DNA from: Hyphomicrobiales bacterium | GTDB lineage: Bacteria > Pseudomonadota > Alphaproteobacteria > Rhizobiales > JACESI01 | Direction of reading: 5' to 3' | Length of the DNA stretch: 64,000 nt | Assembly (NCBI GenBank): GCA_039964305.1 | Contig: JBDVXS010000142.1 | Location: forward strand, 731-64,730 | Shown: one piece after another, positions 9,060 to 34,705 of the stretch | Position numbering within the stretch: the stretch's first letter is position 1 | How the letters are laid out: every line of letters starts with the position of its first letter | Notes under the pieces: generated by a model | What the model was told of the DNA's origin: nothing | Seen by the model: only the letters and a program-made list of their open reading frames with translations | Database searches by the model: none | Made by a program: the position numbers and the translations under genes

Positions 9060-9114
9060 CGCGAGTTTAAGGGTGTAACCGTTGGTCGCCACCCACGCAT
9101 TTTCATTAAATGTG

Positions 9115-9555
9115 ATGAAGAAGAGAGCCGCGTTTTTAAATGCGGCTAAAGGCGTTTTCTTGCCAAGAAAATCTTTCGTCGTGCAGCGTAACGAGCAGGT
9201 CGAGATGTCCAATGCAACGGATGGCTCTTTGCTTGATCCAAGAGTTGGTTTCACGGTGACGAAGAAGGTGGGCAATGCCGTTGTTCGCAACCGAGTGCGT
9301 AGAAGAATGCGCGAAGCGGTGCGGGCGGCATCCTCGGATTTATTCCAAAATGGCCATGACTATGTGCTGGTTGGCCGTAAAGAAGCATTGAGTGTTGAGT
9401 TCAATACCCTTTGCGCTGACATTGAAAGCACGCTAAAGAGACTGGCGCGCGGTGAAGGTAAGCCCGCACGCCCATACAAATCACGCACTGCCCGGTCGCA
9501 TCAAAAGCAAACGACCAGCAATACTGACAGGACGACACGCTCTCATGCAGGATAA
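9115..9555 (+). CDS. rnpA: ribonuclease P protein component
   Basis: Contains the RnpA RNR motif region VGFTVTKKVGNAVVRNRVRRRMREAV. It sits between rpmH and yidC. The ORF is open from TTG 9082 and the first ATG is at 9115. It overlaps the yidC start by 11 nt. Confidence 0.85.
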   Translation: MKKRAAFLNAAKGVFLPRKSFVVQRNEQVEMSNATDGSLLDPRVGFTVTKKVGNAVVRNRVRRRMREAVRAASSDLFQNGHDYVLVGRKEALSVEFNTLCADIESTLKRLARGEGKPARPYKSRTARSHQKQTTSNTDRTTRSHAG

Positions 9556-11413
9556 TAAGAATTTCATTATAGCGATTGTGCTTTCCATGATGGTTTTGCT
9601 GGCTTGGCAAGTACTTATCATTGGCCCGCAGGAAGAAGAACGTCGTCTTCAGGTTGAAGCGCAGCAAGCAGCTGAGCAGCAAGCAATTGCAAATGGCACA
9701 GCGCCGGCACCCACAACGCCATCAGGGCAAGCCACAGGCACGCAACAACCCGCAAGCGGTGTTGTTCCATCAGCGCCCGGTTCAGCGGTTACGCCTGCAA
9801 CGGCCAACGAAGGAGCGGTAACACTAGAAGCCGCTCTTCAAAGTGGCCAGCGTGTTGCAATTGAAACAGAAAGCCTCAGCGGTTCCATCAATCTGGTTGG
9901 TGGTCGCATCGATGACCTTCTGCTTAAAGACTATAAGCAAGAAAATGTTGACGATTCCCCACTTGTACGTTTGTTCCATCCTGTCGGTAGTGAAGAAGCC
10001 TATTATGCGGAAACTGGTTTGGTTGCCGCAGCTGGTGGACCAGCTTTGCCAAACAGTGAAACCGTTTGGAGTGTTTCAGGCAATAAACAACTTGGCGTTG
10101 GTAAGCCTGTTGTCCTCACATGGGACAATGGCGCGGGTCTGACATTTGAACGCACATATGACCTCGACGCGAACTATATGTTTACGTTGACGGACAAAGT
10201 GAAAAACAGCGGCAGCGAACTCGCTACCCTTTATCCTTATGGCTTCGTATCGCGCCGTGGCGAGCCAAGCACCACAGGTATTTGGATTTTGCACGAAGGC
10301 TTGATTGGCTTTTTCGGCAAAGATATTGGTCTTGAAGAGGTTGATTATGACGACCTTGAAGACACCAATGTGCAAGAAGTTGAAAAGACAGACGCTGGCT
10401 GGCTCGGTATCACCGACAAATATTGGGCAGCGACCCTCATTCCACCGCAAGCAACGCCATTTAAAGGCCGCTTTGCTCACAAGCCTGGCACACAGCCATC
10501 CTATCAAGCAGACTTCCTGTCTGACCCAATTACGGTTGCAGCAGGCGGTGAAGCGAGTGCGACAACGCGTTTGTTTGCTGGTGCAAAACAAACAACGCTC
10601 ATTGATCAGTACGAAAAAGATTTGAAAATTGAAAACTTCGAATTGATGATTGACTGGGGTTGGTTCTACTTCATCACCAAGCCGTTGTTCTACCTTCTAC
10701 ACTGGTTGTTTGGTGTGTTTGGAAACTTCGGTGTTGCGATTTTGGGTGTGACCGTGATCGTGAAAATCATCTTCTTCTGGTTTGCTAACCGTTCTTACGT
10801 CTCAATGAGTAAGATGAAGTTGTTGCAGCCGAAGATGAAAGAAATTCAAGAGCGCAACAAAGATGACAAGCAGCGACAGCAGCAAGAAGTGATGAAGCTC
10901 TATAAGGAAGAGAAGGTAAATCCGCTTGCGGGTTGTTGGCCGGTTCTCATCCAAATTCCGGTCTTCTTCTCGCTCTACAAGGTGCTGTTCGTCACCATTG
11001 AAATGCGTCACGCGCCGTTCTTTGGCTGGATACAAGATTTGGCGGCACCTGACCCGACAACCATTTTCAATCTGTTCGGGCTGTTACCATTCACCTTGCC
11101 AGAATGGATGCCACTATTGGGCATTTGGCCGATCCTCATGGGCATCACGATGTTTGTCCAAATGAAATTGAACCCTGCGCCACCTGACCCAACACAGCAG
11201 ATGATTTTCAACTGGATGCCAGTGATCTTCACAGTGATGCTTGCAACGTTCCCTGCGGGTCTTGTGATCTACTGGGCATGGAACAACCTTTTGTCGGTCA
11301 TCCAGCAATATGTCATCATGACTCGCCAAGGCGTCAAAGTGGATATTCTTGGCAATGTGATGGATACGTTTAGAAAGAACAAAAAGTCTAAACAGATCGA
11401 GAAAACGGATTAG
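9545..11413 (+). CDS. yidC: membrane protein insertase YidC
   Basis: The N-terminus [22 protein letters not shown] is typical of YidC. A large periplasmic P1 domain is followed by the conserved C-terminal 5-TM core (...[23 protein letters not shown]...). The track ORF start at 9452 is an upstream extension overlapping rnpA. Confidence 0.95.
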
Positions 11414-11415
11414 TC

Positions 11416-12072
11416 ATGAGCAATGACGAAGAAATTCAAAAGGCGGCGCTGGAAAAGGGCCGCCTTTTCTTTGCAAGACAATGGACCTTTTTGTTAAGTG
11501 TCGCAGATCTGCATGGCTTGCCAGAATTTGATGGTCTGGAGATTGCTTTTGCGGGACGCTCTAACGTGGGCAAATCATCGCTGATAAATGCCCTCACAGG
11601 CACCAAAGGATTGGCGCGCACATCAAACACACCAGGTCGCACACAATTCTTGAACTACTTCTTGCCTGATTCCGTTGAAAAGGCAGAACTCGCCATCGTC
11701 GATATGCCAGGTTACGGCTATGCCAAGGCGCCTAAGCCGCTGGTTGAACAGTGGACTGATTTGATTATGCGCTACTTGCGCGGGCGGACAAATTTGCGTC
11801 GCGTCTATGTGCTGATCGATAGCCGCCACGGTATGAAGAAGAATGACATTGAAGTGCTCGATATGCTGGACCGCACAGCCGTGTCTTATCAGGTTGTTTT
11901 GACCAAAGTAGATAAGATTAAAGTGCCAGCTGTAAAGCGTGTAACGGAAGAAGTTCACGCCGCCCTTAAATCGCGCCCTGCCGCCCACCCTGAGGTGATT
12001 GCTACCTCAAGCGAAAAAGGTGAGGGGGTTGCAGAGCTTCGCGCCGTGATCACCGCGCTGACTGACCGCTAA
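11416..12072 (+). CDS. engB: ribosome biogenesis GTP-binding protein EngB/YihA
   Basis: The G1 motif is [16 protein letters not shown]3 is DMPGYG and G4 is TKVDK. It lies immediately downstream of yidC. Confidence 0.9.
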
Positions 12073-14080
12073 CTTTCCCTAATTTCTGTTTTTGCCAAGG
12101 CGGCGCTTGCCGCTTCACCGTTCCATGGGGTGTTTTCTCCCAAAAGTGCGGGGCAGAATAAAGTTGGAATAATGCACGCCATGCCGCAATTGATAAGAGC
12201 GGCCAGTAAAGCGGTAGCGTCAGGCTGTAGATGAAGAGTTTTTGTTTGCCCCGATAAGCTAATGCCCGATAGGCAAGAAACATATGCACTAAATAAGCAA
12301 AGATGAGGTTTGCCGTTAAAAGAAAGAAAACGTAATGCGGACCTCCCAAAATGCCTAAGGCTAATTGCCCGCCTAAGTAGGCAAGAAAAAAGAGATGTCC
12401 AAGGGCTGAGATGAGCAGCAGGGATGAATAAAGTTGTAGGCTGAGGAAGCGAGCAAACCCAAGTTCATTTAACGTCCGCTTCGGGTTTCTCAAATGCACT
12501 ATGCTTGTCTGCATCCAGCCTTTGAACCAGCGCGTTCGTTGCTTGAGCCACACCCCATAATTTTCTGGCGCTTCCTCAAAAGTTGGGACATCGATCATTT
12601 CAACATTATGGCCAAACCGTTTGAGCCTGATGCCAAGGTCTGCATCTTCGGTGACATTATGGGGATCCCACCCACCAACGGCTCTTAATACATTACAGCG
12701 AAAATGATTGGATGTGCCGCCTAACATGACGGGCGCTCGCCAGCTTGAAAGGGCGGGTAGAAGCCCATCAAACAGGCTTGCATATTCAATCTCGAACATA
12801 GTGGAAAGCCAGCGGCGGTTCGCATTGTCGATTACTAAAGGGGCTTGAATGCAGGCGGTGGAAATATCAGCATGGAGAAACCGATGATAGGCTGCGCGTA
12901 ATTGTTGTGGGTCTGGGCGGTCCTCGGCATCATAAATCACCACAAACTCTCCACGCGCAATGGCAAGAGCGTAGTTCAGCGCGCGTGGTTTGGTTTTTGT
13001 CGTACCCGCTGGCACCACCACAATGCTAAATATGCAATTGCCAGCCGTTGCCTGTTCAAGTGCGTGTTTGGTCGCCAGATCATCTTCTTCAATAACAAGT
13101 TTAATATCGAGCTTAGTGCGGGGCCAATCAATATCATTCAAGGCTGCAACCAGATCAGGAACGATATTGGCTTCTTTATAAAGGGCAACCAAGACGGAAT
13201 AGACAGGCAATTGCTGGTCTGGAGTACGGGTTGGAATGGGAATTTGTGCTTTATTATGTCTCAGGTCTAGTGCTGCGAGCAGACGGATGCAAATGGCAAC
13301 AAAAAACAGAAGGCTCAAGATTAATCCTGCTGAAACGACGACAATGTGTTGACCCGAAAACACCAAAGCCAATAGGCCGATTAAGGCAGCGGTACAAACC
13401 CATAACATGATGCTCTTGTTGACTTTGAACGCAGAAAATTGCGGCATGAATTTTCGCATGGTGGAAGAAGCATGCTGTTCTAGTGGTGTCTTTAGATGAT
13501 CGAGCAATGCATCTTTAATGGTGCTCGGGCTTGCAATGAAAAAGCGTTCTTTCAACTCAGGAGCATGTGTCAGGCGGGAAAGCAGATCACGCGCTTCATG
13601 TTGCTGAGGAGCAAGCACCAACTTTGTGGTTCCCGTGGTTGGGCGAAGGAGAAGACGAGGGTTCTCACGCAGTTTAGAAATGATGTGGCGATCGCTAAGG
13701 TCAATCTCAACCAGTGCTGGATTGATGCTTCGCAGAAATGGCAACCCTAAATGATGAGCGAGAAGACGGTAATAAACCTCCGCGTTAAGATGGCCACTTG
13801 CAATTAATTCGTGATGGGCTTCAACGGCATGCTGTTTAGCTGTTTGTTGAATGGCCCAAAGCATATTGAAATCGAAACCGTGACCAACCAAAAATGCAAT
13901 ATCGTCCTCTAGTTCGCGAACATAAGGTCGAGGTGAAAATTGATCTGCGTTAAGGGTGTATGGGATTTGCTCGCCAATCGGGGTGACTATAGCTGAGCTT
14001 TCAGCTAAGAACGATCCAGCAGAAGTAACTTGATCCGTCCGCCCTTCTATGGTCGGTTCTGGCGGGAAATGAGTACCCAA
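12050..14080 (-). CDS. membrane-embedded family-2 glycosyltransferase (processive beta-glycan synthase type) with an N-terminal T2SSE_N-like domain
   Basis: The GT2 core has the motifs [24 protein letters not shown] and the processivity motif QRTRWFKGW. It is flanked by 2 N-terminal and at least 4 C-terminal TM helices. The first 200 aa or so contain ...[25 protein letters not shown]..., resembling the GspE/MshE N-terminal domain. The only start at the ORF head is TTG 14080, so the true start is uncertain. Confidence 0.8.
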
Positions 14081-14101
14081 AGCAACTGAGCCCTTAATGA
14101 T

Positions 14102-14998
14102 ATGACCAAAATATCGTACGACACAATTTGGAAATATAGTAGATTATTTATTTGTAAATCATCTCTTATTTATAAATTGATTTTCTTGTCTCTTGCATTT
14201 TCTACTGGATCTATTGCAAATGCACAAGAAGCTCGTGTTGAAGTTCCAAAATTTATAAATCCAAACACAGCTGCTTCTTCGGTAAAAGTGACAACCGTTC
14301 GTTCGATCCGCTTTTTAACAACGAGCGACTTTCCGCCCTTTAATTTCATTGATCCATCAGGGAATCTTGACGGTTTCAACATTGGTTTAGCGCGGGAAAT
14401 TTGTTTGGAAATAAAAGCCCGTTGTACCATGCAGGCTTTGCCGTGGGACGATTTGCAAAAGGCATTAAAGCGGGGGCAGGGTGATGCCATTGTTGCAGGG
14501 CTTGCTCTAACTGATCGCACAATCCGCGAGTTGGCCTTCACCAAAACTTACCTGCGGTTTCCAGCACGGTTCTTTTCCAACGCAGCATTTGCGGCAACCT
14601 TTGGTGACTTTAGAACACCAAAGGGCTTGAAGATTGGTGTGGTCAAAAACACGGCCCATGAAGCGTTCTTGAAGCGCTTCTTTCCAGACAATGAACTTTT
14701 GCCTTTTGATAATCAGGACGAACTCAGAATAGGCGTTTTAAAAGGGCTCGCGCAGATCGGCTTTGCTGATGGTGTGCAAACGTCGTTCTGGCTCCAAAGT
14801 GCATCCGCAAAAGAATGCTGCACCTTTGTTGGCGGGCCTTATATCAATACGGACTTTTTCGGTAACGGCCTCTCAATGGCAGTCCCAATTGGTCGGCAAG
14901 ATTTGAAAGATACGTTGAACGACGCTCTTATTCGTTTGATGCGTAAAGGCAAATACTCAGAGATTTATCTGAAATATTTCCCGATCAATTTTTTCTAA
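14102..14998 (+). CDS. periplasmic solute-binding protein, family 3 (amino-acid-type SBP), no adjacent permease or ATPase
   Basis: A signal peptide ends in ...SIANAQE. SBP_bac_3-like segments include FLTTSDFPPFNF, GFNIGLAREIC and DAIVAGLALTDRT. Confidence 0.7.
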   Translation: MTKISYDTIWKYSRLFICKSSLIYKLIFLSLAFSTGSIANAQEARVEVPKFINPNTAASSVKVTTVRSIRFLTTSDFPPFNFIDPSGNLDGFNIGLAREICLEIKARCTMQALPWDDLQKALKRGQGDAIVAGLALTDRTIRELAFTKTYLRFPARFFSNAAFAATFGDFRTPKGLKIGVVKNTAHEAFLKRFFPDNELLPFDNQDELRIGVLKGLAQIGFADGVQTSFWLQSASAKECCTFVGGPYINTDFFGNGLSMAVPIGRQDLKDTLNDALIRLMRKGKYSEIYLKYFPINFF

Positions 14999-15809
14999 TT
15001 TTTAAAAACGGTAGGACCAAGTTCCAAAGCAGATTGACGGGCTTTCTGTCTTGGTGCTCGTTCAGGCCTATGGTCATGCCTTCATGCCCATCTTTTGGGT
15101 CGACTGTATAGGTTTTAAACAGCCGATCCCAAAACGCGAAGTTAAACCCATAGTTGCTATCTGTTTCAGTGGGATGAACTGAGTGATGGATGCGGTGCAT
15201 ATCGGGGGTGACAAAAAAGGGTCGCACGATCTGGTCAAGCGCTAAGGGCAGTTTGATATTGGAATGGTTGAACATGGCCATACCGTTCAAAACAACTTCA
15301 AACAATAAGACCACGACGACTGGTGCGCCGAGAGCGACAACAATGGCGGCCTTCCAAACCATGGATAAAATAATTTCTAACGGGTGAAAGCGTAAAGCCG
15401 AGGTCACATCTAAATCCACATCCGCATGGTGCATTTTGTGAATGCGCCACAAGATTGGCAGTTTATGGCTTGCCCAATGTTCAAGCCAAATAACAAAATC
15501 TAAGACTAGGAATGAAACGGCGAATGCGACGATGAAAGGCACATCAAAGATGTTGAATAGGCCCCAGCCATTTGTTTCCGCCTTAAGCGCAGTGCCGACG
15601 GCTGCCGCTGGAAAAATCAGACGCAAAACAACGCTATTGACGATTGTCAGCGCACCATGAGAAAGCCAGCGCCCTGCTTTGACCTGCTTGCCATCAATCT
15701 TACTTCTGGCTCGACGCGGCAACCAAATTTCTAATAGGGCCATAAGCCCAAAAATGCCGAGAAAGGCAGTTAGGCGAATAGTCGGTTCGTTGTTGACGAT
15801 AAAATCCAA
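14985..15809 (-). CDS. fatty acid hydroxylase / sterol desaturase family membrane protein
   Basis: Contains the di-iron histidine boxes HWASH, HKMHHAD and HRIHHS in a protein with 4 or more TM helices. Confidence 0.8.
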   Translation of the reverse strand: MDFIVNNEPTIRLTAFLGIFGLMALLEIWLPRRARSKIDGKQVKAGRWLSHGALTIVNSVVLRLIFPAAAVGTALKAETNGWGLFNIFDVPFIVAFAVSFLVLDFVIWLEHWASHKLPILWRIHKMHHADVDLDVTSALRFHPLEIILSMVWKAAIVVALGAPVVVVLLFEVVLNGMAMFNHSNIKLPLALDQIVRPFFVTPDMHRIHHSVHPTETDSNYGFNFAFWDRLFKTYTVDPKDGHEGMTIGLNEHQDRKPVNLLWNLVLPFLKIRKN

Positions 15810-15835
15810 CTAAAACCTCTGTTTGCTAGTGGCGA

Positions 15836-16249
15836 TTAAGCCATGCGGTGGCGAACACGGGCACCATATTCAATGGCAGCAACTGATAGTTTATCAAGGT
15901 CCAAACGATCACGAAGCATTTGCAAGAAGCGAAGTTCTTCTTGTTCAATGTGCAAATCAGCCGCAGCAACTTCAACAGCCAATGCATAAGCGGTGTCGTA
16001 AAGGTGTAGCGGCAAGCTCTCAGCAACCACTGTCAACACATCTGCAAGGCCGTCATCTTCGCGCAGTTTGTCACCGCAAACGGTTGCCACATCAACAAGG
16101 TCGTCAGGATTGAAGTCACGGAAGACAGGCAAAATTTTCACCATATCGCCAATGCGCAAAAGTTCGGTTTCGTCCATGCTTTGATCGACGGCGGACATTG
16201 TCACCATGACATAAATCAGGGCCTCAAAATGGGAAACTTGGCTGCTCAT
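15836..16249 (-). CDS. TerB-like (tellurite resistance TerB family) protein
   Basis: An acidic all-helical protein of about 137 aa with two TerB-type repeats (AVDQSMDETELLRIGDMV... and AADLHIEQEELRFLQMLRDRLDL). The ATG at 16249 is preceded by GGAGAG. The track ORF begins at an upstream TTG (16276). Confidence 0.6.
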   Translation of the reverse strand: MSSQVSHFEALIYVMVTMSAVDQSMDETELLRIGDMVKILPVFRDFNPDDLVDVATVCGDKLREDDGLADVLTVVAESLPLHLYDTAYALAVEVAAADLHIEQEELRFLQMLRDRLDLDKLSVAAIEYGARVRHRMA

Positions 16250-16492
16250 GGAACTCTCCGTTTGTCTGCTATGCAAAGCAATTTAATCATCTGATGTGTA
16301 AGCTCAAATGCCGTTTACATCAAGAAACTATTATTCGCCTGTGATACTTACACCCTTTAAGGCGCAAAAAAGTACAATTTTTGCAAGCCTTGGCCGTTGA
16401 ACGGCTTGACCCAATAGGGGTGTAAGCCTAGTTTCCCGCCAACGTCGAGCCGTTTTTCTCTCGTTTTATCAAGCTTCTCAAAAGGAATTATT

Positions 16493-18118
16493 ATGCCGAA
16501 TGCCAGCACAGGCGCTCAAGCCCCTTTGACCATTACGCCCGCTCTTGTTGAGGCGGCTCGTAAATCAAAAGCATGGCCGTTTGAAGAGGCCCGCAAACTG
16601 GTGAAACGGATTGAGCAAACAGGCAAAAAGGAAGCCTTGTTTGAAACAGGCTATGGCCCGTCTGGTCTGCCCCATATTGGCACCTTCGGTGAAGTCGCCA
16701 GAACCACAATGGTTCGCACGGCGTTTCGTGTTTTGACAGAAGATAAAATTCCAACACGGATGATTTGCTTTTCAGATGATATGGATGGCATGCGCAAAGT
16801 GCCGGGCAATGTTCCCAATAAAGACATGCTCGCTGAGCATTTGAACAAGCCGCTTACTCGCGTGCCCAATCCGTTTGATAGTGAACATCCAAGCTTTGCC
16901 CACCACAACAACGCGAAGCTTTGTGAGTTCCTTGATAGCTTCGGCTTTGACTATGAGTTTGCCAGCGCCACGGAATATTACACATCGGGCAAATTCGACG
17001 ATATGTTGGTAAAAGCCTGCGAAAAATACCAAGACATTATGGACGTGATGTTGCCAACTCTTGGCGAGGAACGTCAGGCGACTTATTCGCCAATTTTGCC
17101 AATCTCACCAACCACTGGCAACGTTTTATATGTGCCGATGAAAGAGGTAACGGCTGATGGCATGGTGACCTTTGAAGATGAAGATGGCAGCGATGTCACC
17201 CTCTCGGTCAAAGGCGGTAATGTGAAGTTGCAGTGGAAACCAGATTTCGGCATGCGCTGGGCAGCCCTTGATGTTGATTTTGAGATGTTTGGCAAAGACC
17301 ACCAGATTAACTCCAATGTTTATGACAAGATTTGCCGTATCTTGGGTGTTCGTCCGCCAGACCATTATGTCTATGAATTGTTCTTGGACGATAAAGGCGA
17401 GAAGATTTCAAAAACCAAAGGTAATGGCATCTCCATTGATGAATGGTTGTCTTATGCTTCTCCTGAAAGTCTTTCGCTCTTCATGTTCCAAAAGCCGCGT
17501 ACAGCAAAACGGCTTTATTTTGATGTGATCCCGAAAGCGGTGGATGAGTATTTCACCTTTGCATCAAAGATTGCAGAAGCTGATGAAGTCGCGCTTTTGC
17601 AAAATCCTGCATGGCACATTCATGGTGGCGTTGCCCCTGTTGCTGACATGCCAATTAGCTTTTCCATGTTGTTGAACTTGGTGTCAGCCTCCAACGCAGA
17701 AGACCGCGAAACTCTTTGGGGCTTCATCTCAAGCTATGCAGAAGGTCTCACCCCTGAAACACATCCAAAACTTAATGAGCTTGTTGGATACGCTATCCGC
17801 TATTTTGCGGATTTCGTAAAACCTACCAAAAGCTTCCGTGCGCCGACTGACCAAGAACGTGCCGCAATGGAAGATTTGGCTGCTCGCCTTGGTAAGCTAC
17901 CGGCCGATTCAGCTGCTGATGTGTTGCAAACAGAAGTGTTTTCGGTTGGTAAAGAGCACGGTTTTGAAAACCTGCGCGAATGGTTTCAAGCGCTTTATCA
18001 AGTGCTGCTTGGTCAAGACCAAGGCCCGCGCTTTGGCTCCTTCATCCAGCTTTACGGTATCGAGGCGACAATAAAGCTGATTACAAAAGGTTTAGCTGGC
18101 GACCTGTCAAACAGCTAA
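16493..18118 (+). CDS. lysK: lysine--tRNA ligase, class I
   Basis: The class I signature motifs are [12 protein letters not shown] (HIGH-like) and KISKTKGNG (KMSKS-like). The length of 541 aa is typical of the alphaproteobacterial class I LysRS. Confidence 0.9.
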
Positions 18119-18664: not shown

Positions 18665-20158
18665 ATGATGGCCAAACTGGATCAACGTCTAAAAATGCAG
18701 AAGATGATGCACCTAAAGCCCGTTTATAAGCTCATGCTTTCGAGCCTGTTATGCTTGTCCGTCGCGATTCCTGCATCTGCACAAGAGATAACCAGATCGC
18801 CTTTGCAACCTTTGACTGTTGACGGAGCGAAGAGGTCACCAGTTGAAACAATTGCGCCAACGACATCCATTCGTGTTCAAAAGCCAACCACGCAAAGCGC
18901 CACTTCAAGTTCTGGCCAAGCCTGTGAAGGCAAGCTCGGCGTTCATCGCACCATAACGGTATCGCCTAAGAATACGTTTTTGGTTGGCGTTGATAACCAC
19001 GCCCGCATCGGTTTGAAGAAAAAAGAAATCGTTCTCACCTTTGATGATGGGCCGCGCGCAGGGATTACGGAACCAATCTTAAGGGCGCTTGCGAAGGAAT
19101 GCGTGCTTGCGACGTTCTTTGCCATGGGGCGCTCTGTTAGAGAGCATCCTCATTTGCTGGCCCGTGCGGCGAAAGAAGGCCATACCATCGGCACGCACAC
19201 CCAAAGCCACCCGCTTTTGACAAAACGCAACAATGACGGTGTTGCTGCAGAAGTGAGACGCGGTATTGCCTCGGCTGAAGCAGCTCTTGAAGGCTCTGGA
19301 CACAAGCTCGCTAATTTTTTCCGCTATCCCTATCTCGCCCGTTCAAAACGTACAGACAAAATCGTCAAAGGTTTTGGGCTTGTTGGTTTTCATATGAATA
19401 TTGATAGCTGGGATTGGAAAGACCAAACGCCAGAGCAAATGCTACAAACCACATTGCGCCGGACGCGCGGTGAGGGCAGCGGCATTGTACTGTTCCATGA
19501 TATTCAGGAAAAGACGGCGGTAGCGCTGCCTAAATATCTGCGGATTTTACGCCAAGAAGGATATAAAATTGTCCATCTGATACCAGGTGATAGTGACTTT
19601 AATTTCCGTCAGGATTTAGCGAGCCGCGTGCCGACACCTTTGGTGCGCCCTGCTTATGCGTCAAATGCGCAATCTGGTGCAATCATTCCAGCAAGTACTG
19701 GGGATGCTGCAATAACCAATGGTTTGACTGATAGCACGGCGGTTGCGTCGGTTGCTCCAAAGGCCACGGATGTTACAGATGGTTCATCGCTAGATGGCAG
19801 CCGCGAGAATGCTGCTGCCCGTCTTCGCGCTTTGGCGTTGAAAAAGAACGAAGCAGAAAAAGAAGAACTTGCAAGGCAAGAGCGTGCGAAAAAGCTAGCC
19901 ACTTTGCCGCAACCACCGTTGCCAAAACGCAAGCCAAGACGACGTAAAGTTGCTGCTATTAAGCCAAAATCGAATATAACGGAGTTACGCGGATCTCAAT
20001 CTACCAATTCAGAACCGCTGAAACCTGTTGTTATTGAAAACCCAGGTGATCAGCAGATTGTATCGGTCACGGAAGGCTTGGAACCCGCGCGGAAGAAGAA
20101 AAAGAAGAAGCGGTTTCGTCGTTTGAGAAGTATTTTCACCGACTCAAGCCAACGCTAA
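18665..20158 (+). CDS. secreted polysaccharide deacetylase (NodB homology domain) with a long low-complexity basic C-terminal tail
   Basis: A signal peptide (...AIPASAQE) is present. The NodB motifs are LTFDDGP, HTIGTHTQSHP, RYPYL and IVLFHD. The last 190 aa or so are Ala/Pro/Lys-rich and end in KKKKKKRFRRLR. Confidence 0.8.
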   Translation: MMAKLDQRLKMQKMMHLKPVYKLMLSSLLCLSVAIPASAQEITRSPLQPLTVDGAKRSPVETIAPTTSIRVQKPTTQSATSSSGQACEGKLGVHRTITVSPKNTFLVGVDNHARIGLKKKEIVLTFDDGPRAGITEPILRALAKECVLATFFAMGRSVREHPHLLARAAKEGHTIGTHTQSHPLLTKRNNDGVAAEVRRGIASAEAALEGSGHKLANFFRYPYLARSKRTDKIVKGFGLVGFHMNIDSWDWKDQTPEQMLQTTLRRTRGEGSGIVLFHDIQEKTAVALPKYLRILRQEGYKIVHLIPGDSDFNFRQDLASRVPTPLVRPAYASNAQSGAIIPASTGDAAITNGLTDSTAVASVAPKATDVTDGSSLDGSRENAAARLRALALKKNEAEKEELARQERAKKLATLPQPPLPKRKPRRRKVAAIKPKSNITELRGSQSTNSEPLKPVVIENPGDQQIVSVTEGLEPARKKKKKKRFRRLRSIFTDSSQR

Positions 20159-33484: not shown

Positions 33485-34705
33485 TTATGCGGAAGGGTAT
33501 TGGACGATGGTTGTTGAAGGTTGTTCTTCAGGTGCCACAGGTTCCAGATGCGTTTGATCAAGGCACACACGATTGCGTCCTTTTTCTTTTGCAAGATAAA
33601 GTGCTTGGTCTGCGCGGTGGTAAAGCTCTTCTGAAATTTCGCCGGTCTTAAGCGTCGCAACACCGAAACTTGAGGTAAGTTTTTTATGCTTCGGCATGCC
33701 TTCAAATTGGGCGGCTTGAAATTGCGTCCGCATATTCTCAGCCACTAAGCGGGCACCAGCTGCGTCTGCATTCCACAAAACGATGCAAAATTCTTCGCCA
33801 CCAATGCGGGCGACAAGATCAGTTTTGCGGGAGCATTCTGTCAATAACTTGCCAAAGGTTGCAATCACGCGGTCACCGGTCTGGTGGCCATACGTGTCGT
33901 TGACTGATTTGAAGTGATCAATATCGGCAATGATCATGCTCAAAGGAAGCGGGCTGCGTTCAAGTTTACGGAAGATAGCTTCATACTCTTCTTCGAAGGC
34001 CCGGCGCGTCTTAAGCCCTGTCAAAAGATCTGTGCTTGAAATGCTTCTGATTATTTTCAACATGTCATCCGTCAAAATGGAGATAATGCTTAAGCCTGCG
34101 ACCATGACCATTAAAATGATGCCGAAGTTGAACAACATCCAGCTTGCTGAGTGTTGATAATTAGCCGCCAACGGTGCGTTTGGCTGCGCGTACATAACAA
34201 ACGGAAAGGCCGCGCAAAAAATCGAAAATGTGAATAGAATGACACTGATGGAGCGATGGTTGGATATTTGTTCTGAATTTGCATCCTTGAGCCAGATCCA
34301 CCCACAAACAAAAAGCAACACGGCTTGTACGCCGTTAACAGGAGCCAGCCGAAGGGCGGCCAGATCAGAGCTGGTGATGGCAATGTAGCCTGCAATTAAA
34401 CCAATAACGCCTGTCGCTGAAATCAGGGCGTAAGGCGTCTTAACCTTTGCTCGTGCACAACTGCCCAAGATCAACAATCCCAAGCTTACGGTATCAAGCA
34501 CGACGGCGATGATTATATTTGGATAAGACAAGCCAGGGATGAGGTTGTGCGAAAGCAAAATGCTGAGAGAGCAAAGCGCAAATGCACCAGCAAATGCCAA
34601 GATATGGCGCGCCTCTGTTTGTCGCGACCAAAACACGAAAAAATTCATGCTTATTAGAAACGCAATAATCGGGGCTAAGAAGCCAAAAAGTAGCTGTTCC
34701 TGCAT
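33485..34705 (-). CDS. diguanylate cyclase (GGDEF) with a multi-pass membrane N-terminal domain
   Basis: The C-terminal GGDEF domain has the active site RIGGEEFCIVL and an RxxD I-site (RKTD) five residues upstream. The N-terminal 210 aa or so form about 7 hydrophobic helices. Confidence 0.85.
   Translation of the reverse strand: MQEQLLFGFLAPIIAFLISMNFFVFWSRQTEARHILAFAGAFALCSLSILLSHNLIPGLSYPNIIIAVVLDTVSLGLLILGSCARAKVKTPYALISATGVIGLIAGYIAITSSDLAALRLAPVNGVQAVLLFVCGWIWLKDANSEQISNHRSISVILFTFSIFCAAFPFVMYAQPNAPLAANYQHSASWMLFNFGIILMVMVAGLSIISILTDDMLKIIRSISSTDLLTGLKTRRAFEEEYEAIFRKLERSPLPLSMIIADIDHFKSVNDTYGHQTGDRVIATFGKLLTECSRKTDLVARIGGEEFCIVLWNADAAGARLVAENMRTQFQAAQFEGMPKHKKLTSSFGVATLKTGEISEELYHRADQALYLAKEKGRNRVCLDQTHLEPVAPEEQPSTTIVQYPSA

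Follow-up and report, generated by a model that had tools for sequence, protein, structure and literature searches.

The described relatives closest to the protein considered here, a predicted membrane synthase of glycosyltransferase family 2 (GT2), are XagB of Xanthomonas and, only distantly, NfrB of Escherichia coli. The protein is encoded in a 64,000-nt stretch of DNA (the window) from a Hyphomicrobiales bacterium (assembly GCA_039964305.1, contig JBDVXS010000142.1, positions 731 to 64,730). XagB is the glycosyltransferase for a biofilm exopolysaccharide (EPS) and is encoded in the xagABC(D) operon, which Tao et al. reportedly described in 2010. The XagB-dependent EPS of Xanthomonas contributes to biofilm, and the xag operon is upregulated in mutants of rpfG, an HD-GYP gene (Zhang et al. 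2013, PMC3609779). An unidentified cyclic di-GMP (c-di-GMP) receptor was predicted for this operon (Roelofs et al. 2015, PMC4624772). In the NfrA-NfrB-YbcH system, NfrB is the EPS synthase and is activated by c-di-GMP (Junkermeier and Hengge 2021, PMC8669469). The MshEN-Glyco_trans_2_3 architecture was catalogued in 2016, with Rhodobacter sphaeroides Rsph17029_0522 as the example and NfrB listed with the reverse order (Wang et al. 2016, Supplementary Table 4, PMC5013675). Some proteins in that list have no recognizable c-di-GMP motif (PMC5013675).

We propose, with a probability of roughly 60%, that the window encodes an XagB-family membrane GT2 synthase that has a degenerate MshEN N-domain and probably works with a divergently encoded protein of the solute-binding protein (SBP) fold. 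At the inner membrane the enzyme would build a glycan, probably beta-linked, from a nucleotide sugar, and its partner would be periplasmic. The N-domain would no longer sense c-di-GMP in the canonical way. It is probably a structural, autoinhibitory or docking module, like the nonbinding N-domains of XpsE and Xanthomonas PilB. Already known are the XagB family, the class of enzyme and, since the 2016 listing, the arrangement of domains. What appears to be undescribed is that a large clade of Alphaproteobacteria has systematically lost the c-di-GMP signature, and that the synthase has a conserved pairing with an SBP-fold protein of atypical kind.

The features of the two genes, in window coordinates, are as follows.

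12050..14080, minus strand: whole gene of the XagB-family GT2 synthase, 676 residues, TTG start (open reading frame [ORF] list; identity to MEP1444015.1; XagB similarity; conserved TTG)
13934..14080, minus strand: residues 1 to 49, disordered and weakly conserved N-terminal tail (predicted local distance difference test [pLDDT] score below 50)
13448..13927, minus strand: residues 52 to 211 (approximate), degenerate MshEN/T2SSE_N-fold domain with a helical bundle, an alpha/beta subdomain and a long juxtamembrane helix (profile, AlphaFold2 [AF2], Foldseek, hhalign)
13751..13906, minus strand: residues 59 to 110, equivalents of the two 24-residue c-di-GMP-binding motifs (alignments, column frequencies)
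13268..13417, minus strand: residues 222 to 271, two N-terminal transmembrane helices (AF2 helices 222 to 242 and 244 to 271; hydropathy peaks 220 to 275)
12566..13201, minus strand: residues 294 to 505, predicted cytosolic GT-A catalytic domain with DAED (384 to 387) and TEDAD (477 to 481) (PF13641 at 294 to 520, PF13632 at 380 to 583; invariant residues; secondary structure)
12461..12559, minus strand: residues 508 to 540, predicted interface helices with QRTRW (514 to 518) (AF2 helices 508 to 529 and 533 to 540; invariant residues)
12155..12457, minus strand: residues 542 to 642, C-terminal membrane helices, two clearly hydrophobic and the third amphipathic (AF2 helices 542 to 577, 585 to 610 and 613 to 642)
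12125..12142, minus strand: residues 647 to 652, WEKTPH, nearly invariant C-terminal motif (column conservation)
14081..14101, no strand: 21-bp spacer between the two divergent start codons, TTG 14080 and ATG 14102 (sequence)
14102..14998, plus strand: secreted SBP_bac_3-fold protein with a noncanonical pocket (PF00497, E = 4.5e-24; conserved divergent neighbor)

The catalytic core and the XagB family

The synthase is 100% identical to P0001, which is MEP1444015.1 ([quoted passage not shown]). A first-pass annotation, made from the DNA letters, had held TTG 14080 to be the sole option at the head of the ORF. This is indeed the only in-frame start within the first 60 codons, and it is kept as TTG in two orthologous loci (L085 and L086). 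Residues 1 to 49 align with the orthologues without indels, and their codon-position bias is weak. The same annotation had assigned the ORF a D, D, D, QxxRW signature, and we located the peptides that it quoted. VIYDAEDRP spans residues 381 to 389 (nt 12914 to 12940), TEDADLG residues 477 to 483 (nt 12632 to 12652), and QRTRWFKGW residues 514 to 522 (nt 12515 to 12541). D384, D387, E478, D479, D481, Q514, R515, R517 and W518 are invariant in a 60-member alignment of synthase relatives, which confirmed the signature. In the same alignment W647, K649, T650 and H652 of WEKTPH are each at least 90% conserved. We take this motif to be a possible equivalent of the gating loop, presumably comparable to the FxVTxK and WGTR motifs of BcsA and HAS.

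The Pfam scan of the synthase returned GT2 families alone (PF13632, 8e-21; PF13641, 7e-18; PF00535, 4e-8). Matches to the BcsA, PgaC and NfrB-type models of NCBIfam were weak and below threshold, with 65 bits versus a cutoff of 992 for BcsA, 58 versus 422 for PgaC, and 28.6 versus 431 for PRK14716 (NfrB-type). The full-length AF2 model, built on 60 relatives, had a mean pLDDT of 88 and a predicted template modeling score of 0.87. It placed transmembrane helices at residues 222 to 242 and 244 to 271 before the catalytic domain, and at 542 to 577, 585 to 610 and 613 to 642 after it. Hydropathy clearly backed four helices, C-terminally just 548 to 578 and 583 to 604. Membrane helices thus flank the catalytic core on both sides, as the first-pass annotation had stated. 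Foldseek matched the model in the PDB to BcsA (2.6e-15) and, at a target-normalized template modeling score (TM-score) of about 0.6, to the Chlorella virus and Xenopus HAS (XlHAS1). The minimal archaeal membrane mannosyltransferase 6yv7 (target-normalized TM-score 0.62 to 0.69) and chitin synthases followed. The synthase has the catalytic signature and the predicted fold of BcsA/HAS-type enzymes, which polymerize nucleotide sugars and pass the chain through the inner membrane. The earlier description of a processive-type membrane GT2 synthase stands as far as motifs and predicted fold go (Pfam, NCBIfam, alignment, AF2 and Foldseek). Both are also common to PgaC. However, the window synthase has neither the PilZ domain nor the BcsB or PgaABD partners of BcsA and PgaC, and it has fewer transmembrane helices than BcsA.

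The family was scanned in species-representative genomes, with at least 600 matching stretches, all of which encode a synthase relative. The best 80 of these loci are mostly from Hyphomicrobiales and other Alphaproteobacteria, including Rhizobium, Ensifer, Mesorhizobium, Brucella tritici, Nitrobacter, Rhodopseudomonas, Methylobacterium, Microvirga, Xanthobacter and Roseibium. The 80 further include Xanthomonas cucurbitae, whose locus (L081) is the xag operon. The window synthase is 35.7% identical to X. cucurbitae XagB over 588 columns (residues 92 to 656; E = 9e-105), and several relatives carry the JGI name "glycosyltransferase XagB." By this full-length similarity, which takes in most of the N-domain, the window synthase is an XagB-family GT2 enzyme. 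XagB has the same domain order, with an MshEN-type N-domain, two transmembrane helices, the GT2 core and C-terminal transmembrane helices, and a juxtamembrane P..SA..V segment is common to both proteins. Unlike the window synthase, XagB matches PF05157 (E = 1e-12) and has near-canonical LLG...Q and RLG motifs. The two MshEN motifs of XagB (L081, 5836-7743) read LLGRALVSAGVITDEQLGAALALQ and RLGDVILAQRGVPAQRFYAIVAAH. We suggest from these motifs that the predicted c-di-GMP receptor of the xag operon may be XagB itself.

The two genetic settings also differ. The operon of XagB also encodes XagA, XagC (a membrane protein) and XagD (a GH113 hydrolase), whereas the window gene is paired with the divergent SBP gene. 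No homologue of XagA, XagC or XagD was found in the window; among the loci searched, such homologues occur only in L063, L068, L071, L074 and L081. The last gene of the xag operon, xagD (L081, 9031-9999), encodes a GH113 glycoside hydrolase (E = 8e-32). GH113 is a beta-mannanase family, and its presence in the operon hints, speculatively, at a mannan-like XagB product. Because XagD belongs to this family, we considered whether GmsA, the glucomannan synthase of Rhizobium leguminosarum (RL1661), is a family member. We rejected it, since the gmsA orthologue has been described as a UDP-phosphate glucose phosphotransferase, an initiating enzyme and not a GT2 (PMC6628131).

NfrB is likewise a GT2 synthase fused to an MshEN-type domain, and the two glycosyltransferase cores are 25% identical over 338 columns. 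However, NfrB carries its MshEN domain at the C terminus, motif II of that domain is perfect (RLGGSMLMQGLISAEQLAQALAEQ), and the relatedness is only distant. No homologue of NfrA or YbcH was found in the window. Rsph17029_0522 is alphaproteobacterial and has the domain order of the window synthase; here the likeness is one of architecture, as catalogued.

The N-terminal domain

The first-pass annotation had seen an MshEN-like module in the N terminus and had quoted a peptide from it. This peptide lies at residues 92 to 116 (nt 13733 to 13807), inside the range that it gave (about 13706 to 13912). It had named a PF05157 search and fold prediction as checks. PF05157 matched neither the whole synthase (E up to 1) nor the N terminus alone (E up to 10), nor any of the 35 clade members scanned (the window protein and 34 others). 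The positive controls XagB, L071, L073, L080 and NfrB matched at 4e-6 to 2e-15. Pfam alone would suggest that there is no MshEN domain, but profile and fold methods overturned that reading. We searched a profile (A1) of the N-domain of 35 relatives against PDB sequences, and the top matches were all of the T2SSE_N type. They were Thermus PilF (3.6e-7), isolated PilF GSPII-B domains (about 1e-3), Vibrio cholerae MshE 5HTL (0.01) and XpsE-N (2D27; 0.019). An AF2 model of residues 50 to 228 had a pLDDT of 90. Its best 18 Foldseek matches in the PDB were all MshEN, GSPII, PilB-N or XpsE-N domains, the best with an E value of 9e-5 and a target-normalized TM-score of about 0.6. With hhalign, the clade profile matched the Pfam-positive MshEN domains of five related synthases at 98.5% probability (E = 2.6e-15, 147 columns). 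Against the single NfrB MshEN sequence the probability was 4%, with the alignment register correct. By profile and predicted fold, the N-terminal approximately 160 residues, on the cytosolic side, thus form a true domain of the T2SSE_N/MshEN type, as the first-pass annotation had guessed. The domain shares ancestry with the MshEN receptor for c-di-GMP that XagB and deeper alphaproteobacterial relatives carry and that NfrB has at its C terminus.

MshEN domains bind c-di-GMP through two tandem 24-residue motifs, RLGxx(L/V/I)(L/V/I)xxG(L/V/I)(L/V/I)xxxxLxxxLxxQ (Wang et al. 2016, PMC5013675). Arg1 stacks on guanine, Gln24 contacts ribose and phosphate, and the backbone amides of Gly3 and the next residue read the guanine Hoogsteen edge (PMC5013675). 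XpsE has lost binding through substitutions at the Arg, Gly and Gln positions (PMC5013675). In the window protein, the alignments show DDI...K in motif I (residues 59 to 82) and EAH...H in motif II (residues 87 to 110) in place of the canonical RLG...Q. Arg1, Gly3 and Gln24 are therefore replaced in both motifs. The alignment and column counts show that Gly10, a structural residue, and the positions of the hydrophobic core are retained. The relaxed motif published by Wang et al. matched none of the 120 relatives listed, and motif II of NfrB, the positive control, did match it. Column counts over 115 relatives put Arg1 and Gly3 outside the six commonest residues in either motif. Gln24 was rare, with 8 of 115 in motif I and a place outside the six commonest in motif II. 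The loss of these three residues from both motifs and the 0 of 120 matches together make canonical c-di-GMP gating unlikely.

Near-canonical motifs are retained by Xanthomonas XagB, Parvibaculum (L073) and metagenome-assembled genomes (MAGs) of a gammaproteobacterium (L071), Solirubrobacterales (L080) and Rhodobiaceae (L060). XagB, L071, L080 and L073, the four of these that were scanned with PF05157, all pass it. Because these deeper relatives keep the motifs, the family is, judged by its sequences, ancestrally an MshEN-GT2 synthase, and the Hyphomicrobiales clade with the window protein is a degenerate derivative.

The N-domain of GspE docks GspL. The XpsE/GspE N-domain (2D27) and the Xanthomonas citri PilB N-domain (7LKO) have the fold of the window N-domain and have likewise lost the key c-di-GMP residues. 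Both are protein-docking modules, and PilB-N docks PilZ according to the title of 7LKO. However, they are fused to secretion or pilus ATPases, whereas the window domain is fused to a glycosyltransferase.

The divergent SBP-fold protein and competing explanations

The gene calls of three relatives have an SBP_bac_3 gene divergently adjoining the synthase gene. Of 83 related loci searched with tblastn, 61 carry an SBP homologue (29 to 72% identity). In every one of the 61 it is divergent and lies upstream, and in 59 it directly adjoins the synthase gene. Three of the 22 loci without a homologue lack upstream sequence. The SBP-bearing loci represent separate species across many alphaproteobacterial families. 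Other neighbors of the synthase vary (FA_hydroxylase in 11 loci, TerB in 24), and the SBP gene is its only conserved neighbor. The first-pass view of a stand-alone synthase beside an orphan SBP gene was thus not supported. L060 and L073 carry both the SBP gene and intact c-di-GMP motifs, which places the origin of the partnership before the motifs were lost.

The distance between the two start codons is 21 bp in L086, as in the window, and 31 bp in L085. With a 21-bp spacer, each promoter must lie inside the coding sequence of the other gene, unless a start is misassigned. The exact translation from ATG 14102 is absent from the protein collection, and the annotated SBP start may therefore differ. 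A promoter and terminator scan of 11900-15100 gave nothing above the shuffled expectation.

The window SBP is most similar to Arg/His/LAO-binding proteins (3tql, 1.6e-27), and it falls under all NCBIfam cutoffs. Amino acid binders such as HisJ (1HSL) and LAO have an Arg that binds the alpha-carboxylate of the ligand (Arg77 in HisJ), together with Ser69, Ser70 and Ser72 in HisJ numbering. The window SBP has Thr at the Arg77 equivalent and Ala, Gly and Ala at those of Ser69, Ser70 and Ser72. Across the 61 SBP orthologues the Arg77 position is never Arg, the three Ser positions are mostly Ala, Gly and Ala, and Gln122 is changed to His in 57. The vicinal pair Cys239-Cys240 (...KECCTF...), His186 and Trp230 are each at least 90% conserved in the same set, and the usual HisJ-type disulfide C101-C108 is conserved as well. 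Judging from these residues, the pocket differs from those of the amino acid binders HisJ, LAO and ArtJ across the partner family.

Three other explanations were weighed against an XagB-family synthase with a degenerate N-domain. The first-pass annotation had raised a possible c-di-GMP-gated synthase, in which the MshEN-like N-domain binds c-di-GMP and gates the enzyme as in NfrB, or as PilZ does in BcsA. The homology of the domain to true c-di-GMP-binding MshEN domains, its intact Gly10 and hydrophobic core, the near-canonical motifs in Xanthomonas, Parvibaculum and the Rhodobiaceae, gammaproteobacterial and Solirubrobacterales MAGs, and a GGDEF gene elsewhere in the window all speak for it. 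We nevertheless regard it as improbable, and it was not borne out. Arg1, Gly3 and Gln24 are absent from both motifs (DDI...K and EAH...H), no listed relative among 120 fits even the relaxed motif, PF05157 is not matched, and XpsE lost its binding through substitutions of these kinds (PMC5013675). Another explanation, which overlaps with ours, moves control to the periplasm. Here the SBP would bind a small ligand or the nascent polymer and activate or guide the synthase, with the MshEN domain a mere structural remnant. The strong conservation of the divergent pair, its age relative to the motif loss (L060 and L073) and the family-wide remodeling of the pocket (Arg77 lost; His186, Trp230 and the vicinal Cys-Cys kept) favor this explanation. 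However, the synthase is predicted to have only very short loops on the periplasmic side, and adjacency could mean coregulation only, so we consider it possible but unlikely.

The enzyme could also be a minimal, nonprocessive GT2 from which a lipid or another membrane acceptor receives one sugar or a few. This would agree with the four clearly hydrophobic helices, with the good structural match to the archaeal mannosyltransferase 6yv7 (target-normalized TM-score 0.62 to 0.69) and with the export and accessory genes being unlinked in the window clade. We find it very unlikely, because QRxRW and TED are invariant, the best structural matches are BcsA and HAS, and genetic evidence connects the homologue XagB with a biofilm exopolysaccharide. 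The proposal that we favor, an XagB-family synthase working with the SBP-fold protein, also has points against it. We infer processivity, substrate and polymer from motifs and fold only. With four clearly hydrophobic helices, a single subunit may not form a complete channel, and oligomerization or a partner may be needed. A noncanonical c-di-GMP site in the N-domain may still be compatible with the sequence. Conserved adjacency does not prove a physical interaction between SBP and synthase. In a sister lineage the synthase is split by an insertion, so its function is dispensable at least there.

No outer membrane export gene is linked to the window synthase, and a periplasmic or cell-associated product is therefore possible. 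In a more speculative version of the proposal, which we hold to be unlikely, the synthase of this alphaproteobacterial clade once sensed c-di-GMP and lost its cytosolic binding site. An SBP-fold protein dedicated to it, with a remodeled pocket, would now control or complete the enzyme from the periplasmic side. If true, gating by a periplasmic ligand or assistance by an SBP would be a form of control that has not been described for GT2 synthases. The prediction of c-di-GMP receptors widely relies on MshEN-type domains, and here a large clade keeps the fold without the binding signature. An annotation of the window clade's enzymes as c-di-GMP gated would probably be wrong. The SBP pairing offers a concrete handle on an uncharacterized exopolysaccharide system that occurs in rhizobia, Brucella/Ochrobactrum, Nitrobacter, Rhodopseudomonas, Methylobacterium and their relatives.

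Wider neighborhood and interrupted genes

The flanking housekeeping genes at 9082-12072 are rnpA, yidC and engB. The synthase gene (minus strand) and engB/yihA (plus strand, 11416-12072) converge, and their 3' ends share 23 bp (12050-12072); the same overlap occurs in L004. On the other flank (14985-18118) are an FA_hydroxylase gene (14985-15809, beyond the SBP gene), a TerB-like gene and a class I lysyl-tRNA synthetase gene. The block of SBP, FA_hydroxylase, TerB and lysK genes is syntenic in Chelativorans (L003). The first-pass annotation had named a family 3 SBP gene (14102-14998) and a lipid hydroxylase gene as neighbors, and domain matches (SBP_bac_3 and FA_hydroxylase) bore this out. It was also right that a NodB-type deacetylase gene (18665-20158) and the GGDEF gene (33485-34705) are not linked to the synthase. 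We rejected linkage to the deacetylase because L086, the closest relative, is the only one with this gene near the synthase, apart from two weak matches elsewhere.

In the sister lineage L086 (80 to 89% identity), an approximately 3.7-kb insertion with an IS1595-type transposase splits the synthase gene after codon 461. The two parts of the gene are the following.

L086, 6001-7395 and 11101-11751: parts of the split synthase gene (proteins P0004-P0007)

The disrupted allele is widespread, since the "GLM*" junction recurs in four protein clusters (P0004-P0007) that come from different samples.

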